NCBI GenBank assembly: GCA_037381685.1
Contig: JARRQO010000014.1
Coordinates: 1-39,462 of the forward strand
Length of the DNA: 39,462 nucleotides
From: Deltaproteobacteria bacterium
Lineage (GTDB): Bacteria > Desulfobacterota > Desulfobaccia > Desulfobaccales > 0-14-0-80-60-11
Direction of reading: 5' to 3'
Positions 2,697 through 31,070 of the stretch are shown here, one piece after another (positions within the stretch are counted from its first letter, which is position 1; every line of letters begins with the position of its first letter). The notes beneath the pieces were generated by a model, which saw only the letters and a list, made by a program, of their open reading frames with translations, searched no databases and was not told the DNA's origin. The translations under genes and the position numbers were made by a program.

Positions 2697-4925
2697 CTAA
2701 AAATTTATACTAATACGCCGGATGTCAAGGAGGGGGCCGTTATTGATGGTGGGAATCGCGGACCACTTGTGGATAATGTAGTGTTTGCGTTGCTCATAGA
2801 GGGCATTCACATCCATCCCGAGTCGGCGCATAACCCGGATGGAAGATCGGGCCTCCCGGTGCAGGTAGGTCAGGTCAAAAAAGCGCTGATTCACATACCC
2901 CTTGGTGTCCATCTGAAAAGCCAGGTCGTTATCTTCAAAGCCCCAGCCTGCGCCATTGAAAGGCGCGCTTTCATCAAAGCGAATCCCGTCAGCGAAGACC
3001 GCGCGGCGAAACATGCCGTACTGCGTCCAGGCCACCAGGTTGGTGGTCTCAACCCGGTTGATGCTATAAAAGGATGAGCTGGCACGTTCCCGAAAGGGCG
3101 TCTGCCCGGCTGAATCCGCACCGATACAGCCCAGGCGGCGCCCGTTATTTTCCAGGTAGCGCAGCATGGCGAAGCTGGAGAAAGGCACGATCTCGATATC
3201 CCCATCCATGAACAGGAGATAATCGGCGTCAATTTCAAGCATATAGTCAATGATTTGGTTCCGCGCCCGCGAACTCCCCAGATTCTCCGGGTTGCAAATC
3301 AGTTGAAAAGGCACGTCGATTGCGGCCCGCAATTGCCTCAGGGCCTCCGCAGTACCGTCCACGGAGCCATTGTCACAAACACAAATATGGGGCTCCTGGC
3401 CCAACCGTCTCAGCATGTGGGCTTCACGGACATAGCACCTCACCGAATCAAGGCTAACGTCACAAGTATTCCACGTGAGCAGAGCCAGAACGATTTTTTT
3501 CCCTGCCGGCAATGCCCCCGGATGCGACTTATAGAAAACCCCGCCCAGGCAGGCGTGGGGATAAGGCTGGTCCTGGCGATAGAGGGTAAGATCATCTTCA
3601 CCAGGGTCATCGATCACTTCAGAGAGTGGATGGATATCGTGCCTGCTGCAGAGGTCAACCCATTCCCGGGGTGTGACCTTATTCCAACCATTGAAAACCT
3701 CCCGGCGATCAGGACGCATCACGCCGAGGTTCAAAAACGCCGGCTGCTGCCAAAAGGAGTCGAAGTAATAATCGGAGGTTAAAATCAGCCAGCCGCCGGG
3801 CTTTAGTTTTCGCGACAAGGCGGCGATCAGGGCTTCTCGCTGCGGCTTGAGCAGATGTTCCAGGGTGTTAATACAAAATACCCGGTCGAAAACCTCGTCA
3901 GGGACTCCGAAAGGCAGCACAAATTTCCCTTTTGGTATCGGATTCCAATGACGATAAAGGATGTGGGGATATAAACCATGCAATCGTTCCTGGAAACCCG
4001 CGGGGTTAATGGTGCAATCCAGGACGGACCCGGTGTTCGGCAGGCGCGCTTGGAACAGGGCAAAAGGCAGTTCCCAGCGCCGCATCCGCGGCAGATTGAG
4101 ACCATGATTGAAAGCCGCGTATTCAGGAAGGGAGAGATGGCCGGTTTTTGCCGGCGTCATCGTGGGAATGGTCCTCTCCACCACGGGCAGTTGAGCAGGT
4201 ACGACCTGGCTGGCGGTTTTCTCTCCCAGAACTCCGCCATAGAAGGACCAATCCTTCCCCAGTATTCCCTGGATTACCTCTACCGGAAAGGATCGCCAGT
4301 AGGCCCCCTGGGTCTGCTTGGGGCTCGCGTTGTTCCCATGAATGAGGCCCACATGAAATGTGGTATCCGGCAAGGCCACCATGCGCTTAGGGTCGCCGCT
4401 CCAGACAAAACGGCCGTCCTCGCCGACATTGATATCTTCGAAAGGATGGTTAACCCAAAAGGCACGCCGGTAACACAGAGTGTTGCCCGACAGCCAAAAG
4501 CGCAAGTGCGCGGGATAGACGTATTCCCAGGCCCTACGGGTATCCAAGTCGTAAAACCGCAAGCGGTTGGTACCGCAGACTTCGGCGCCTGCCTGCCGGA
4601 GCGCCTCGGTCTGGTAGCTTAAACGGTAGGGGGCATACCAGTCGTCGTCATCCCAGTGGGCAATTATGTCACCCTGGGCCTGCTCACAGGCGAGGTTGCG
4701 TTTGGCCCCGATCGTGAGCTTGTTCTCCAAACGGATATACCTAATGCGGCTATCAGACGGAATGAGGTCCCTGATGCTGTCGGTGCCGTCGTCAACGATT
4801 ATCAGTTCCTGGGGGTCATAATCCTGGCGTTGGAAGTAAGCGAGGGCCTGGGCAATAAAAGGACGGCGGTTGTACGTGGGCATGATGCAGGATACCAGCG
4901 GCCTTGCCCTGCTGGCGGCGCTCAT
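2697..4925 (-). CDS. three-domain enzyme: family-2 glycosyltransferase - SAM methyltransferase - family-2 glycosyltransferase
   Basis: 742-aa ORF with AAGGAG 5 nt upstream. N-terminal GT2 signature: CIMPTYNRRPFI..LIIVDDGTDS..HWDDDDWY. Central class-I methyltransferase-like block: FDRVFCINTLEHLLKPQREALIAALSRKLKPGGWLILTSD. C-terminal second GT2: VLALLTWNT..VCDNGSVDGT..LFMDGDIEI. Confidence 0.8.
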   Translation of the reverse strand: MSAASRARPLVSCIMPTYNRRPFIAQALAYFQRQDYDPQELIIVDDGTDSIRDLIPSDSRIRYIRLENKLTIGAKRNLACEQAQGDIIAHWDDDDWYAPYRLSYQTEALRQAGAEVCGTNRLRFYDLDTRRAWEYVYPAHLRFWLSGNTLCYRRAFWVNHPFEDINVGEDGRFVWSGDPKRMVALPDTTFHVGLIHGNNASPKQTQGAYWRSFPVEVIQGILGKDWSFYGGVLGEKTASQVVPAQLPVVERTIPTMTPAKTGHLSLPEYAAFNHGLNLPRMRRWELPFALFQARLPNTGSVLDCTINPAGFQERLHGLYPHILYRHWNPIPKGKFVLPFGVPDEVFDRVFCINTLEHLLKPQREALIAALSRKLKPGGWLILTSDYYFDSFWQQPAFLNLGVMRPDRREVFNGWNKVTPREWVDLCSRHDIHPLSEVIDDPGEDDLTLYRQDQPYPHACLGGVFYKSHPGALPAGKKIVLALLTWNTCDVSLDSVRCYVREAHMLRRLGQEPHICVCDNGSVDGTAEALRQLRAAIDVPFQLICNPENLGSSRARNQIIDYMLEIDADYLLFMDGDIEIVPFSSFAMLRYLENNGRRLGCIGADSAGQTPFRERASSSFYSINRVETTNLVAWTQYGMFRRAVFADGIRFDESAPFNGAGWGFEDNDLAFQMDTKGYVNQRFFDLTYLHREARSSIRVMRRLGMDVNALYEQRKHYIIHKWSAIPTINNGPLLDIRRISINF

Positions 4926-4983
4926 TCTGACTCCTTCGGCGGCTTCGGGTCTGAAAACCCTGGTTCCACAGGCGGAACCTGGC

Positions 4984-29440: not shown

Positions 29441-29450
29441 GGCTATCTCC

Positions 29451-31070
29451 TTATACCTCTATCTGTCCGACCAGCTGTTGGATCTTAATCACCACGAATT
29501 CGGCGGGCTTCAGCGGAGCAAAGCCCACCAGAATGTTGACGATGCCCAGGTTAATGTCGTTTTGGGTCGTGGTTTCCTTATCGCACTTGACGAAGTACGC
29601 CTCCCGGGGGGTTTTGCCCTGGAAAGCCCCCTGTCGAAAGAGGTTTTGCATGAAAGCCCCGACGTTCAGCCGGATCTGGGCCCAGAGCGGCTCGTCATTG
29701 GGCTCGAAGACCACCCACTGGGTGCCGCGATAGAGGCTTTCTTCAATAAACAGCGCGGTCCGCCGCACCGGGATGTATTTCCATTCGGAGGCTAAACGGT
29801 CGGCCCCCTCCAGGGTCCGCGCCCCCCAGACGACGCGGCCGATTACCGGAAAGGCCCGCAGGCAATTCACCCCCAATTGATTCAGTTCCCCATTTTCGTC
29901 GTCGGTCAGAGATACGCTGAGCTGGGGCACACCCACGAGGGTTGCCTCCAAACCGGCCGGGGCTTTCCAAACTCCCCGCACCCCATCGGTGCGGGCAAAG
30001 ACGCCCGCCACCGCGCCGCAAGGAACAAAATCCTCGACCTGGTTATCCCGCAGGGGATTAGGCTGCCTCAGGCGTGGGAAGAAGATGGTGGCGTGGTTGC
30101 TGCGGGTCCCGACATGATCCGTAGTCGCGTCGGTGAATTCCGTCCTGGCCTGGTCCTTGGTGGTCCAATCACTGGGGGGGTCCACCAGCAGGAAGGCGCG
30201 CCGCGCTTCACAGTATGCCGCCGCAGCTCCGATGAGACCGGTATCGACATCCTGAGCGAAACCATAGGGTGGAAGGCACAACAGATTAAAGAGATCGGCC
30301 TTTTCCAGGGCATAGAGTCCCTTCTTGGTGCCGGTGTCCTTGCCAGGCCCGGTGAATTCATTGATCCCCAGAACATCCCCATCCGATCCGGGGGTGGGCG
30401 CTGCCGGGGGGCTGGTTGGCGGGCTGGATGGGGGACTGAGAGGGGTAGAAATTATCGTGGAGTCAAAGGGTCTGACATTAGGCACCATAAAGGCGCCAGT
30501 GGTCGGGTCTGTCGGCACCGCCACCAGGTTTGAGCTTTGCTCCAAGACCTTTGGGAGATACCGGGGATTGGCGGAGTCCACTGAGACATTCAGAAATCGT
30601 TCGGATTGCAGGACTTGCTGGGTGTCGGGATTAATCTCCGAAACGATAAGATTGAAAAGCTTCTGGTCGGTTGGGGCCTTGGTATCATAGTTCACGCTGG
30701 CGCTCAGATTGTTGCCCCAGGCGCCTGCATTGGCGGCATCCAGGAGGAGCTCATCGTCAGGGTCGGCAGCACCGGTAGGCAGGGAAATCCTGGCTTTGGT
30801 GGCCCCCTTGTGCAGCCGCACGATAACGGCCTGGCTGCCGCCGTTCAGGTAAAAGTCCCGCACGGCGTAACTCATAGGACTTATGAGGGACAGTCCTCCA
30901 AAAATCCGTTCGTAGTCACCGAAGCTGTTAATGGTGATGGGGTCCTCCACCGGTCCCCGGGCGGCCCGGCCGACAAATGCCGTAGTTGAAGTTGCTACCC
31001 CAACAATGGTGCGCACGCCGCTGGGAATTTCCAAAATATACACACCGGGATAAGTACCTACCTGTGCCAT
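29451..31070 (-). CDS. CIS contractile sheath protein (Afp2-4/Cis2-like)
   Basis: 539-aa ORF with GGAGG 9 nt upstream. The N-terminus YPGVYILEIPSGVRTIVGVATSTTAFVGRAARGP and the C-terminal block GVNCLRAFPVIGRVVWGARTL are sheath hallmarks. It contains an internal SPPSSPPTSPPA insert. Confidence 0.9.
   Translation of the reverse strand: MAQVGTYPGVYILEIPSGVRTIVGVATSTTAFVGRAARGPVEDPITINSFGDYERIFGGLSLISPMSYAVRDFYLNGGSQAVIVRLHKGATKARISLPTGAADPDDELLLDAANAGAWGNNLSASVNYDTKAPTDQKLFNLIVSEINPDTQQVLQSERFLNVSVDSANPRYLPKVLEQSSNLVAVPTDPTTGAFMVPNVRPFDSTIISTPLSPPSSPPTSPPAAPTPGSDGDVLGINEFTGPGKDTGTKKGLYALEKADLFNLLCLPPYGFAQDVDTGLIGAAAAYCEARRAFLLVDPPSDWTTKDQARTEFTDATTDHVGTRSNHATIFFPRLRQPNPLRDNQVEDFVPCGAVAGVFARTDGVRGVWKAPAGLEATLVGVPQLSVSLTDDENGELNQLGVNCLRAFPVIGRVVWGARTLEGADRLASEWKYIPVRRTALFIEESLYRGTQWVVFEPNDEPLWAQIRLNVGAFMQNLFRQGAFQGKTPREAYFVKCDKETTTQNDINLGIVNILVGFAPLKPAEFVVIKIQQLVGQIEV

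Follow-up and report, generated by a model that had tools for sequence, protein, structure and literature searches.

A probable fibre-bearing contractile injection system of a deltaproteobacterium and its conserved Lgt-like membrane protein

Among described contractile injection systems (CISs), the cell-retained CIS-Sc of Streptomyces is the nearest by sheath and Cis11 to the locus analysed here, and the membrane-bound, T6SS-like CIS of the haloarchaeal Halogeometricum is among the nearest by sheath. CIS-Sc and the haloarchaeal CIS depend on or correlate with the cluster-encoded membrane proteins CisA and Hbor_38620, the latter described as having 6 TM helices and a cytoplasmic domain of ~150 aa. 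Like our locus, the haloarchaeal system has two cis11 genes, and its cis13 'fibre' has been suggested to touch the membrane. By contrast, CIS-Sc is without fibres, whereas the cluster described here has a fibre gene. Our window is a whole contig of 39.5 kb (39,462 nucleotides) from a metagenome-assembled genome, and inspection ends at the contig ends. For comparison we used JGI metagenome contigs of the same population, which come from two samples and are ~99.6% identical to the window.

A single-strand CIS cluster

The cluster comprises 22 genes, all on the minus strand, from 31070 to 2697 (~28 kb), which bears out the tightly packed, single-strand CIS cluster proposed for 2697–31070 by an earlier sequence-only reading. 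That reading also proposed about a dozen overlaps of 4–10 nt; overlaps of this type are present, and with corrected starts their number is 10–11. The remaining junctions are gaps of at most 70 nt, the sole exception being a 196-nt gap between the Lgt-like and CIS_tube genes, which narrows to 62 nt if a 45-aa ORF of uncertain status (20696..20833, minus strand) is real. This ORF, which lies inside the only large intergenic gap, is called in the JGI contigs, is preceded by GGAGG and overlaps the following gene at an ATGA, and we found no conservation of it in other loci. The window contained no tRNA or Rfam matches.

Profile searches recovered the sheath, tube, gp25, Baseplate_J, Pvc16_N, AAA+, eCIS_core, LGT and DUF6519 assignments. 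Nearly all domain calls of the sequence-only reading stood, whereas those of a PAAR-like protein, a LysM/gpX protein and a gpD-like hub were weak or unsupported. Pfam, PHROG or PDB matches were found for all core CIS parts except a 374-aa hub-like and a 739-aa Cis12-like protein. The system is a CIS of the Afp/PVC (eCIS) superfamily and, in line with the earlier proposal, neither a T6SS nor a tailocin or prophage tail; most probably the region is a single operon-like cluster of clade II that encodes a fibre-bearing machine. Myophages share its sheath, tube, gp25 and baseplate J genes, but this cluster also encodes a Pvc16_N cap, a dedicated AAA+ ATPase, an eCIS_core protein and DUF6519. Additionally, genes for a capsid, portal, terminase, integrase, holin and endolysin were all absent from the 39.5-kb contig, and the cluster is flanked by cellular genes; we consider it extremely unlikely that the locus is an ordinary myophage tail module or R-type tailocin. 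Its module order, once thought unusual, also occurs in Bryobacteraceae, Solibacteraceae and Bacteroidota loci.

Sheath, cap and ATPase genes

All features described from here on are on the minus strand. The sheath (Cis2; 539 aa, 29451..31070; Pfam Phage_sheath_1/Phage_sheath_1C, E 1e-9 to 7e-11) has (SPPx)3 inserted at residue 212. It is followed by the inner tube (Cis1; 175 aa, 28913..29440; Phage_T4_gp19, E 4e-45) and a Cys-pair, Zn-ribbon-like protein (244 aa, 28172..28906), which matched T4_baseplate (PF12322, E 5e-14) and phrog_150 'baseplate hub' (7.5e-7) and holds the same position in five other loci (L014, L016, L019, L027 and L031). The next gene encodes a Pro-rich protein (290 aa, 27303..28175) that had no match in Pfam, NCBIfam or PHROG and whose last 50 residues are conserved in L019; its position before the cap gene makes it a possible tape-measure-like factor.

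The cap or tail terminator (Cis16; 450 aa, 25954..27306) matched Pvc16_N (E 3e-53), with a weak TIG match, and carries an (SPPx)2 motif. The AAA+ ATPase (Cis15; 658 aa, 23981..25957; Pfam WHD and AAA, E 1.5e-24) has homologues of 54–57% identity in related loci. After it comes a small protein (113–115 aa, 23643..23990) without a family match, which is conserved in the same five loci, has a homologue at L003 3185–3511 and is 113 aa long in the JGI contig L006. A 164-aa ORF starting at ATG was rejected as this gene in favour of 23643–23990.

Baseplate and fibre genes

The effector-type gene encodes an eCIS_core (formerly DUF4157) zincin (22086..23646; E 2e-32 to 2e-34); its corrected start is 23646, and the intact protein, at L006 3925–5613, has 562 aa. 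Beyond the Lgt-like gene lie a tube-like initiator (218 aa, 20043..20699; CIS_tube, E 5e-7), with homologues of 55–81% identity in related loci, and a small baseplate protein (103–107 aa, 19723..20046) of conserved position that matched phrog_46 'baseplate hub' (E 8e-4), its likeness to gpX/LysM being weak (Phage_tail_X, E 0.11). The 374-aa protein that follows (18606..19730) had no Pfam, PHROG or PDB match; its homologues (46–70% identical) always lie between the small baseplate protein and the spike, and by position alone it is a putative baseplate hub or second, Cis7-like tube initiator. The spike (Cis8; gpV/VgrG OB-fold, 171 aa, 18094..18609; Phage_base_V, E 9e-22) precedes a PAAR-like tip protein (107 aa, 17703..18026; DUF4280, E 8e-4, under the curated cut-off), for which position is conserved and the start was adopted from the JGI gene call, and a gp25-like sheath initiator (Cis9; 121 aa, 17333..17698; GPW_gp25, E 3e-20).

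The baseplate wedge Cis11a (14735..17336; weak Baseplate_J match, E 1.5e-4) is encoded intact at L007 4876–7479 (867 aa) and contains two SPPSPP motifs. ORFs of 651 and 232 aa, previously read as separate genes, both belong to it. A second Baseplate_J-type, Cis11b-like wedge (911 aa, 12003..14738) matched phrog_219 'baseplate wedge subunit' (3e-23) and, weakly, Baseplate_J (7e-4). The next protein (739 aa, 9787..12006) had no profile or PDB match and is Cis12-like by position only: in L027, L092 and L093, its homologues separate the wedge genes from the fibre gene.

The earlier reading recognized no fibre. However, the gene at 6025..9764 (DUF6519, E 2e-65 to 7e-65) encodes, when intact, a 1,246-aa tail fibre with an anchor domain, a C-terminal beta-propeller-like region and two (SPPx)n inserts. 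DUF6519 is the published tail-fibre baseplate-anchor domain eBAP5 (PMC12923769), and the system is thus not fibre-less. 'DUF6519-like / beta-propeller' denotes this single gene and not several. It is followed by a protein with a transthyretin-like N-terminal domain and a coiled coil (340 aa, 4984..6006), from a family of 13 proteins. The window protein had profile matches to coiled coils only, and its L092 homologue matched TTR-52 and CarboxypepD_reg. The last gene encodes a GT2–methyltransferase–GT2 fusion (742 aa, 2697..4925; Glycos_transf_2 in two stretches, E 8e-39, and Methyltransf_11). In the distant loci L092 and L093 the coiled-coil gene again directly follows the fibre gene and precedes GT2 and methyltransferase genes, so that this order is kept in three of three loci (35–41% protein identity for L092 and L093). 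Because of this conserved order we extend the cluster down to 2697, as had been proposed. In L016, the sheath gene is preceded, at a distance of 17 nt, by a gene for a multi-domain glycosyltransferase that shares the N-terminal GT2 domain.

Frame-breaking deletions in the window

Relative to the JGI contigs, three genes of the window are broken by deletions: the eCIS_core gene has lost 128 bp between 23348 and 23347, the Cis11a gene 2 bp at 15466 and the fibre gene, which is intact in L009 and L010, 1 nt at 7454. If these deletions are real and not assembly errors, the window's copy is non-functional; that it is a decaying locus, with the CIS intact in sibling strains, is possible but somewhat doubtful. 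Over ~33 kb, window and JGI contigs differ by three indels, every one of which breaks the frame and lies outside homopolymers and tandem repeats. They strike effector, Cis11 and fibre genes, and the SNPs are clustered, which points to a distinct strain. However, the contig is metagenome-assembled, and where the population is mixed, such indels can arise from errors of consensus or assembly; the intact versions (562, 867 and 1,246 aa) agree between two independent JGI assemblies from two samples.

A CIS-linked family of Lgt-like proteins

The 196-nt gap is preceded by a gene for an Lgt-fold polytopic membrane protein (388 aa, 20896..22062; Pfam LGT, E 4e-20) with 8 predicted helices and a C-terminal alpha/beta domain of ~110 aa. 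It scores 82.9 bits against an NCBIfam Lgt cut-off of 334 bits, and its AF2 model (pLDDT 80.5) had E. coli Lgt (5AZB) as top Foldseek match. The equivalents of R143, G154, Y235, R239, E243 and R246 are retained, and invariant Cys residues stand in place of N146 and E151. The C-terminal domain occurs at the terminal position only and in such proteins only (223 clusters), and had no structural match. Mean K+R counts are 14.2 for odd loops and 1.3 for even loops. By the positive-inside rule on AlphaFold helices, the sole basis of this topology, the conserved face and the C-terminal domain are predicted to point into the cytoplasm; the core would then have the opposite orientation to that of E. 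coli Lgt, an unusual situation.

More than 1,000 homologues exist, and the gene lay in CIS loci in all three sampled contigs. Scanning one genome per species, we found CIS-specific genes within 10 kb at 33 of 37 loci encoding the C-terminal domain, compared with 2 of 44 core-only paralogues (Fisher p 6e-16), both of the latter being truncated matches. The full-length family is almost confined to CIS or DUF4157 loci. Across at least 9 phylum-level groups, its genes form part of operons and share their strand, and their position within CIS operons varies (in L027 the PAAR-like gene lies on one side and the gp25 gene on the other). This linkage, the family-specific C-terminal domain and the conserved order of fibre, coiled-coil and glycosyltransferase genes all speak against the Lgt-like and glycosyltransferase genes being cell-envelope passengers without a CIS role. 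GT2 enzymes are common envelope genes, and in a 2021 census of isolate genomes Pfam LGT showed no enrichment in eCIS operons (2 genes, odds ratio 0.35), but we consider the passenger explanation, already disfavoured, highly improbable.

Release or retention

Simple release is argued against by the closest solved relatives, which for both sheath and Cis11 are cell-retained systems. The sheath aligned over its full length to S. coelicolor CIS-Sc (8BKY, E 8e-72) and to the membrane-bound Halogeometricum sheath (9EZM, 9e-71), its best PDB matches, whereas the PVC, Afp, AlgoCIS and tCIS sheaths matched the C-terminal core only. The best PDB match of Cis11a was S. coelicolor Cis11 (9GTP, 2e-14). One explanation, which follows the earlier reading and is tentative and on balance rather unlikely, is that the particles are never released: the Lgt-like protein would tether them to the cytoplasmic membrane, and they would fire from within the cell, either contact-dependently as in a T6SS or, as in Streptomyces, to bring about cell death. 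In that case the 'fibre' would serve as a contact at the baseplate periphery or with the membrane. Consistent with this, the Lgt-like protein is conserved and polytopic, has a predicted cytoplasmic domain and resembles Hbor_38620 and CisA in general layout. By contrast, a 1,246-aa eBAP5 fibre is encoded, and in many loci the Lgt-like gene lies among DUF4157 effector genes and not baseplate genes. No lysis genes were found in the window or flanks, which had been taken as a sign of retention, but according to a review some bona fide eCIS loci likewise have no lysis cassette (PMC10598620).

In the working that we propose, particles would assemble on the baseplate in the cytoplasm and load the DUF4157 protein, aided by the ATPase, and sheath contraction would fire them after the fibre engages a target. 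The GT2/methyltransferase may modify the fibre region, the Ser-Pro-Pro repeats being candidate sites. This link to the repeats is weak, because L093 has a glycosyltransferase and a fibre without SPP repeats. The Lgt-like protein would reside in the cytoplasmic membrane with both termini, its conserved Arg/Cys/His motif face and C-terminal domain in the cytoplasm, and may act on or dock DUF4157 effectors or the particle. Its role could be lipid-dependent docking or lipid transfer and not canonical lipoprotein maturation. The class of system is already known; what is new here is the fibre-linked sugar-transferase module and the Lgt-like membrane proteins, which with their C-terminal domain constitute a conserved and previously undescribed family.

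The cluster is a known kind of CIS

The sheath, tube, Pvc16_N cap, AAA+ ATPase, eCIS_core, gp25, Baseplate_J and spike proteins jointly define the Afp/PVC-type superfamily of contractile injection systems (CIS) (PMC8213781), and profile searches against Pfam and PHROGs recovered nearly all of the domains that a sequence-only reading of this DNA had named. We found the sheath (Phage_sheath_1/1C), the gp19 tube (Phage_T4_gp19), the PF12322 'T4_baseplate' protein, the Pvc16_N cap with a TIG domain (E 3e-53), a WHD-AAA+ ATPase (E 1.5e-24), eCIS_core (the current Pfam name of DUF4157; PF13699, E 2e-32 to 2e-34), LGT, CIS_tube, Phage_base_V (9e-22), GPW_gp25 (3e-20), Baseplate_J-type wedges (Baseplate_J and a PHROG wedge family, 3e-23), DUF6519 and a GT2-methyltransferase-GT2 protein. 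The ATPase gene directly follows the cap gene, with a 4-nt overlap. Three labels held less firmly: the PAAR-like protein matched weakly (DUF4280, E 8e-4), as did the LysM/gpX protein (Phage_tail_X, E 0.11; phrog_46, 8e-4), and the 374-aa 'gpD-like hub' owes its name to position alone, as it matched nothing in Pfam, PHROGs or PDB sequences. PDB sequence searches with the 374-aa, 739-aa and PF12322 proteins gave zero matches, and an exact-record look-up of the 739-aa protein found none. The Pfam families of canonical T6SS (subtypes i–iii), TssJLM, TssA and ClpV, were absent from the 32 window proteins scanned. The cluster is thus a genuine CIS; because clusters of this superfamily have already been catalogued in thousands, it is in itself ordinary.

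The minus-strand genes from 31070 down to 2697 form an unbroken run in the ORF listing and its translations. With corrected starts, 10–11 junctions are overlaps of 4–10 nt, and the remaining gaps are of 70 nt or less with one exception: the Lgt-like and CIS_tube genes are 196 nt apart. In this gap a 45-aa ORF (20696–20833), with GGAGG upstream and an ATGA overlap, was predicted by JGI gene calling; we sought its conservation in other loci and found none. Promoter and terminator scans of the operon ends and the 196-nt gap gave nothing above shuffled expectation, and the window contains no tRNA genes or Rfam matches. The small gene after the ATPase lies at 23643–23990 and is homologous to 3185–3511 of a comparison locus from another genome (L003). 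A 164-aa ATG ORF at 23317–23811 was rejected as this small protein, as its N-terminal half is off-frame; its C-terminal half corresponds to the 5' end of the eCIS_core gene.

As the sequence-only reading had stated, genes for capsid, portal, terminase, integrase, holin and endolysin are all absent from the window, which spans an entire contig of 39,462 bp from an NCBI metagenome-assembled genome (MAG) deposited as 'Deltaproteobacteria bacterium'. Such genes would have marked a myophage tail or an R-type tailocin. On either side of the cluster lie cellular genes, encoding a phosphoesterase, an Fe–S domain protein, two histidine kinases, a GerE/LuxR response regulator, a second receiver protein, DUF1269 and an N-terminal fragment (149 aa) of a P-type ATPase. 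The kinases, the GerE/LuxR regulator (36846–37469) and the second receiver protein occupy 32235–38042 on the plus strand, divergent from and upstream of the sheath gene, and one kinase carries periplasmic-binding-like, GAF and PAS domains. Geller et al. 2021 observed GerE regulators and kinases beside eCIS loci, which makes these genes candidate regulators of the cluster. The ATPase fragment (31278–31727, plus strand) contains only a Cation_ATPase_N domain and lies ~200 nt from the sheath start; around it, G+C drops from ~0.60 to 0.47–0.52 in 31000–34000. The CIS island may have its boundary, or a scar, at this truncated gene and G+C drop.

Nearest characterised relatives

Compared with PDB entries, the window sheath best matched that of Streptomyces coelicolor CIS-Sc (subtype IId), end-to-end (8BKY, E 8e-72; also 8BL4), and the Halogeometricum borinquense sheath was nearly as strong a match (9EZM, 9e-71). 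The PVC, Afp, AlgoCIS and Anabaena tCIS sheaths aligned through their C-terminal core only (1e-36 to 1e-44; for PVC, Afp and AlgoCIS, 1e-37 to 1e-44). Intact Cis11a, the first wedge protein, was also nearest to CIS-Sc Cis11 among PDB sequences (9GTP, 2e-14). CIS-Sc resembles the window system in its simple Pvc16/Cis16 cap as well, and its function depends on the cluster-encoded membrane protein CisA. However, CIS-Sc lacks a fibre and a tape-measure gene, has another gene order and has no reported Lgt-like or GT2/methyltransferase genes. Absence of a tail fibre gene is a trait of subtype IId, whereas a 1246-aa DUF6519/eBAP5 fibre is encoded here. CisA is bitopic by description, whereas the only membrane protein of the window cluster has an eight-helix Lgt fold, a different architecture.

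The T6SS-like CIS of Halogeometricum (clade IIa) shares two cis11 genes and a cis13 fibre-like gene with the window, and its DUF4157 proteins are secreted substrates; it differs in being archaeal and in its gene order. Its Hbor_38620, a polytopic membrane protein that is conserved and has a cytoplasmic domain, correlates with membrane-bound action and is encoded ~20 genes away from cis2. Hbor_38620 is described as six TM helices plus ~150 aa, an architecture similar to that of the Lgt-like protein, and has no stated Lgt relationship. A tblastn search of plasmids aimed at Halogeometricum pHBOR03 returned no match; the collection is not known to hold archaeal plasmids.

Afp, PVC and AlgoCIS share with the window the sheath, tube, spike, PAAR, gp25, Baseplate_J, DUF4255/Pvc16 cap, AAA+ ATPase and fibre, and they also have DUF4157-linked effectors (PMC8213781). 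They differ in that the window fibre is of the eBAP5/DUF6519 rather than the Afp13-like type and in that the window's cap–ATPase–effector block sits between the sheath–tube and baseplate modules. The full order is sheath, tube, PF12322, (Pro-rich), cap, AAA, small protein, effector/Lgt-like, tube initiator, and so on to gp25, wedges and fibre. This order, previously called unusual, recurs in Bryobacteraceae, Solibacteraceae and Bacteroidota genomes and is clade-typical, not peculiar to this contig.

A fibre and a conserved 3' module

A paper of 2026 named DUF6519 eBAP5 and counted it among five domains that anchor eCIS tail fibres to the baseplate (PMC12923769), so the window system is not fibre-less; the sequence-only reading had recognised no Afp13-type fibre. 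The DUF6519 gene (6025–9764, minus strand) begins 22 nt after the 739-aa wedge gene, and its intact 1246-aa product has DUF6519 at the N terminus (PF20129, E 7e-65) and weak beta-propeller signals at residues 812–883. The N-terminal DUF6519 is as in published eBAP5 fibres, and the gene directly follows wedge genes; it differs from those fibres in its lineage-specific (SPPx)n inserts, and neither the transthyretin/coiled-coil nor the GT2/methyltransferase genes that follow it here appear in the text of that paper. The reported lack of a lysis cassette did hold, as we found none, but some eCIS loci have none either (PMC10598620), so this too is less unusual than claimed. The three points put forward as unusual were all weaker than claimed.

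The sequence-only reading had proposed a cell-retained or membrane-anchored system. Retention is a serious rival, albeit one we consider somewhat doubtful: among characterised systems, the closest relatives stay in the cell and rely on the cluster-encoded membrane proteins CisA and Hbor_38620. In the reading we judge best, the particle bears a fibre and has an Lgt-like membrane partner that faces the cytoplasm. Assembly and firing of such a particle would follow the scheme established for other CIS, for which the parts themselves are encoded in the window.

The 340-aa transthyretin/coiled-coil protein encoded after the fibre belongs to a family of only 13 proteins. Distant members (38–41% identity) in two loci from other genomes, L092 and L093, have a context identical to that in the window: wedge genes, a ~700-aa gene, a DUF6519 fibre, the 340-aa-type protein and a GT2 plus methyltransferase protein. 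In L092 these are followed by a further GT2 gene and then an Lgt-like gene. The L092 homologue of the 340-aa protein matches transthyretin-like and CarboxypepD_reg models, which supports the label given earlier. In another locus (L016), 17 nt separate the sheath gene from the end of a preceding multi-domain glycosyltransferase gene, whose product shares the N-terminal GT2 domain of the window protein (47% identity). The conserved context in L092 and L093, together with this related GT2 gene, indicates that the window cluster extends to 2697, as suggested before, and includes the GT2-methyltransferase-GT2 gene (2697–4925, minus strand). We also observed that related CIS clusters are edged by same-strand multi-domain glycosyltransferase genes (L016 104–2782; L092 11065–14066; L093 11336–14866), of GT2+GT4/GT1, GT2+methyltransferase and GT2_4 types. 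G+C is 0.54–0.57 in window 2001–7000, which holds the fibre C terminus, coiled-coil and GT2 genes, versus 0.60–0.63 in the rest of the operon, hinting at a separate history of the 3' module.

Ser-Pro-Pro repeats in structural proteins

Four CIS structural proteins carry repeats of the form (SPPx)2–4, at six sites in all: sheath residue 212 (minus-strand codon start 30437), cap residue 397 (26118), Cis11a residues 85 (17084) and 122 (16973), and fibre residues 189 (9200) and 262 (8981). There were no others in any frame of the window and none in the flanking proteins. Among ~80 other loci, compiled before L092 and L093 were added, CIS proteins contained no such repeats, and the sole matches were mixed Ser/Thr-Pro-Pro runs outside CIS genes in L044 and L071. 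The homologous loop of the L092 fibre is SPP-rich; that of the L093 fibre is not. Copies of a mobile DNA element were rejected as their source, as the repeats are imperfect 12-nt codon repeats that are 73–85% alike. The presence of both SPP repeats and an operon-encoded GT2-methyltransferase-GT2 protein suggests, speculatively, that the repeats are candidate O-glycosylation sites for this enzyme. Glycosylation of mycobacteriophage virions provides a precedent.

Three genes are broken in the window contig

Three pairs of overlapping ORFs resembled split genes, and these were resolved by sibling contigs, ~99.6% identical to the window, from JGI metagenomes 3300076654, 3300076670 and 3300057040, located through exact-protein look-ups. 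The eCIS_core gene is a single 562-aa ORF in sibling contig L006; the window lacks 128 bp between 23348 and 23347, a deletion that takes out the 'QPGDVFEQEADRVA' stretch and shifts the frame. Cis11a (14735–17336, minus strand) is a single 867-aa ORF in L007, and the window lacks 2 bp at 15466. The DUF6519 fibre gene is a single 1246-aa ORF in both L009 and L010, and the window lacks 1 nt at 7454. A slip or programmed −1 shift in the T6 run near 7470 was rejected as the cause of the fibre frameshift, as the run is identical in the JGI contigs. All indels between the window and the JGI contigs are frame-breaking, with no in-frame ones over ~33 kb, and none lies in a repeat. From these comparisons, the three deletions could reflect either real decay or MAG consensus error.

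The Lgt-like protein has the Lgt fold but is not a canonical Lgt

The window cluster encodes a 388-aa membrane protein (20896–22062, minus strand) whose AlphaFold model (pLDDT 80.5) has eight long helices followed by an alpha-beta-beta-beta-alpha-beta-beta domain. The only meaningful fold match in the PDB was E. coli Lgt, the phosphatidylglycerol-prolipoprotein diacylglyceryl transferase (5AZB; Foldseek probability 1.0, TM-score 0.50 on target); phmmer and profile searches against PDB sequences returned nothing, so that Lgt was found by fold search only. Membership of the Lgt fold (PF01790 superfamily, seven-helix core) is borne out by the Pfam LGT match (4e-20) and by alignment of R129 and R210 to R143 and R239 of Lgt. 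The membrane part thus has the same fold as Lgt, but the protein has an additional eighth helix and a C-terminal domain of ~110 aa. In fold searches the isolated domain (pLDDT 84) had no significant match, the best being ExsC (E 0.05, probability 0.47).

By alignment and family conservation, the equivalents of R143, G154, Y235, R239, E243 and R246 of E. coli Lgt are kept. At the positions of N146 and E151, Cys is found instead in all 32 homologues, giving the motif GCxMxGCCHG in place of the Lgt equivalog signature G-R-x-G-N-x-x-N-x-E-x-x-G. Work by Pailler in 2012 and Mao in 2016 reportedly pointed to the importance of those residues in Lgt. The NCBIfam scores are far below the Lgt cut-offs (NF000778, 82.9 bits versus 334; TIGR00544, 32.3 versus 118.9), and the protein is therefore not a canonical Lgt. 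Across the 32 homologues, Lys+Arg counts averaged 14.2 in the N-tail, loops 82–87, 140–167 and 218–229 and the C-tail, versus 1.3 in the other loops. Under the positive-inside rule, these charges predict that the N and C termini, the face bearing the conserved motif and the C-terminal domain are turned towards the cytoplasm. This predicted orientation would be the opposite of that of E. coli Lgt.

The Lgt-like protein is linked to CIS across phyla

A protein search identified more than 1000 homologues with 50–57% identity over the full length, and in all three large contigs sampled the Lgt-like gene lay among eCIS_core and other CIS genes. We then scanned one genome per species, taking the best 80 of at least 568 genome hits, by tblastn with all window CIS proteins. 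Of loci whose Lgt-like protein has the C-terminal domain, 33 of 37 had same-strand, CIS-specific genes no more than 10 kb away; 28 of these 33 had eCIS_core genes, often in arrays of 2–6, and 15 had structural genes. By contrast, only 2 of 44 'core-only' paralogues were CIS-linked, both of them truncated matches (Fisher p 6e-16). Carriers among these best 80 of at least 568 hits belong to Acidobacteriota, Desulfobacterota, Chloroflexota, Bacteroidota, Cyanobacteria, Myxococcota, Planctomycetota (Brocadia), Actinomycetota and Betaproteobacteria. Desulfoluna spongiiphila AA1, D. butyratoxydans MSL71 and Roseateles chitinivorans P36 are cultured carriers. A search with the C-terminal domain alone matched 223 clusters (50% identity), in every case at the terminus of a protein of the Lgt-like type.

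The position of the gene is variable. In most loci it lies beside effector genes, but in L027 it separates the PAAR-like gene from gp25, in L031 it separates cap from ATPase and in L092 it comes after glycosyltransferases; the genes preceding it in L003 and L092 have no homology to each other. In L003–L005, L017, L022, L024, L025 and L030, 2–6 co-directional eCIS_core genes flank the Lgt-like gene, and some of these arrays have no structural CIS gene within 10 kb. Such arrays may be detached effector islands. Shorter Lgt paralogues with a GC[LF]M[VA]GCC motif, without the C-terminal domain and with no CIS genes nearby, make up loci L050–L090 and occur in Lachnospiraceae, Vicinamibacterales, Bacteroidota and others. 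This shorter family seems to have given rise to the CIS-linked clade. In the searchable literature we found no link of Lgt-family proteins to CIS and no Lgt-fold protein as a recurrent CIS component; in a 2021 census of isolate genomes, Pfam LGT (2 genes) was not enriched.

Implications

What remains is a clade-wide, previously unremarked Lgt-fold accessory, together with a conserved fibre–glycosyltransferase module and a damaged copy in the window contig. A fuller scheme, which we regard as improbable, is that the Lgt-fold protein is an inverted, cytoplasm-facing lipid-handling enzyme or dock that acts at the cytoplasmic side of the membrane, where it tethers or lipid-modifies DUF4157 effectors or else the particle; in parallel, the GT2-methyltransferase-GT2 protein would glycosylate the SPP loops on fibre, sheath, cap and wedge proteins, yielding a sugar-decorated particle. 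If true, the inverted Lgt-fold dock would constitute a novel membrane-coupled step, perhaps a third means by which CIS are anchored, in a clade of at least nine phylum-level groups. The fibre/coiled-coil/glycosyltransferase module could matter for fibre engineering and target-range prediction.

The Lgt-like protein touches the question of how CIS particles other than T6SS come into contact with membranes, take up DUF4157 cargo or exit the cell. In two recent studies, a different cluster-encoded membrane protein was key in each, CisA and Hbor_38620. The Lgt-like protein would be a third, enzyme-derived membrane partner, distributed from Acidobacteriota to Bacteroidota, and its presence in cultured strains makes the question directly testable.
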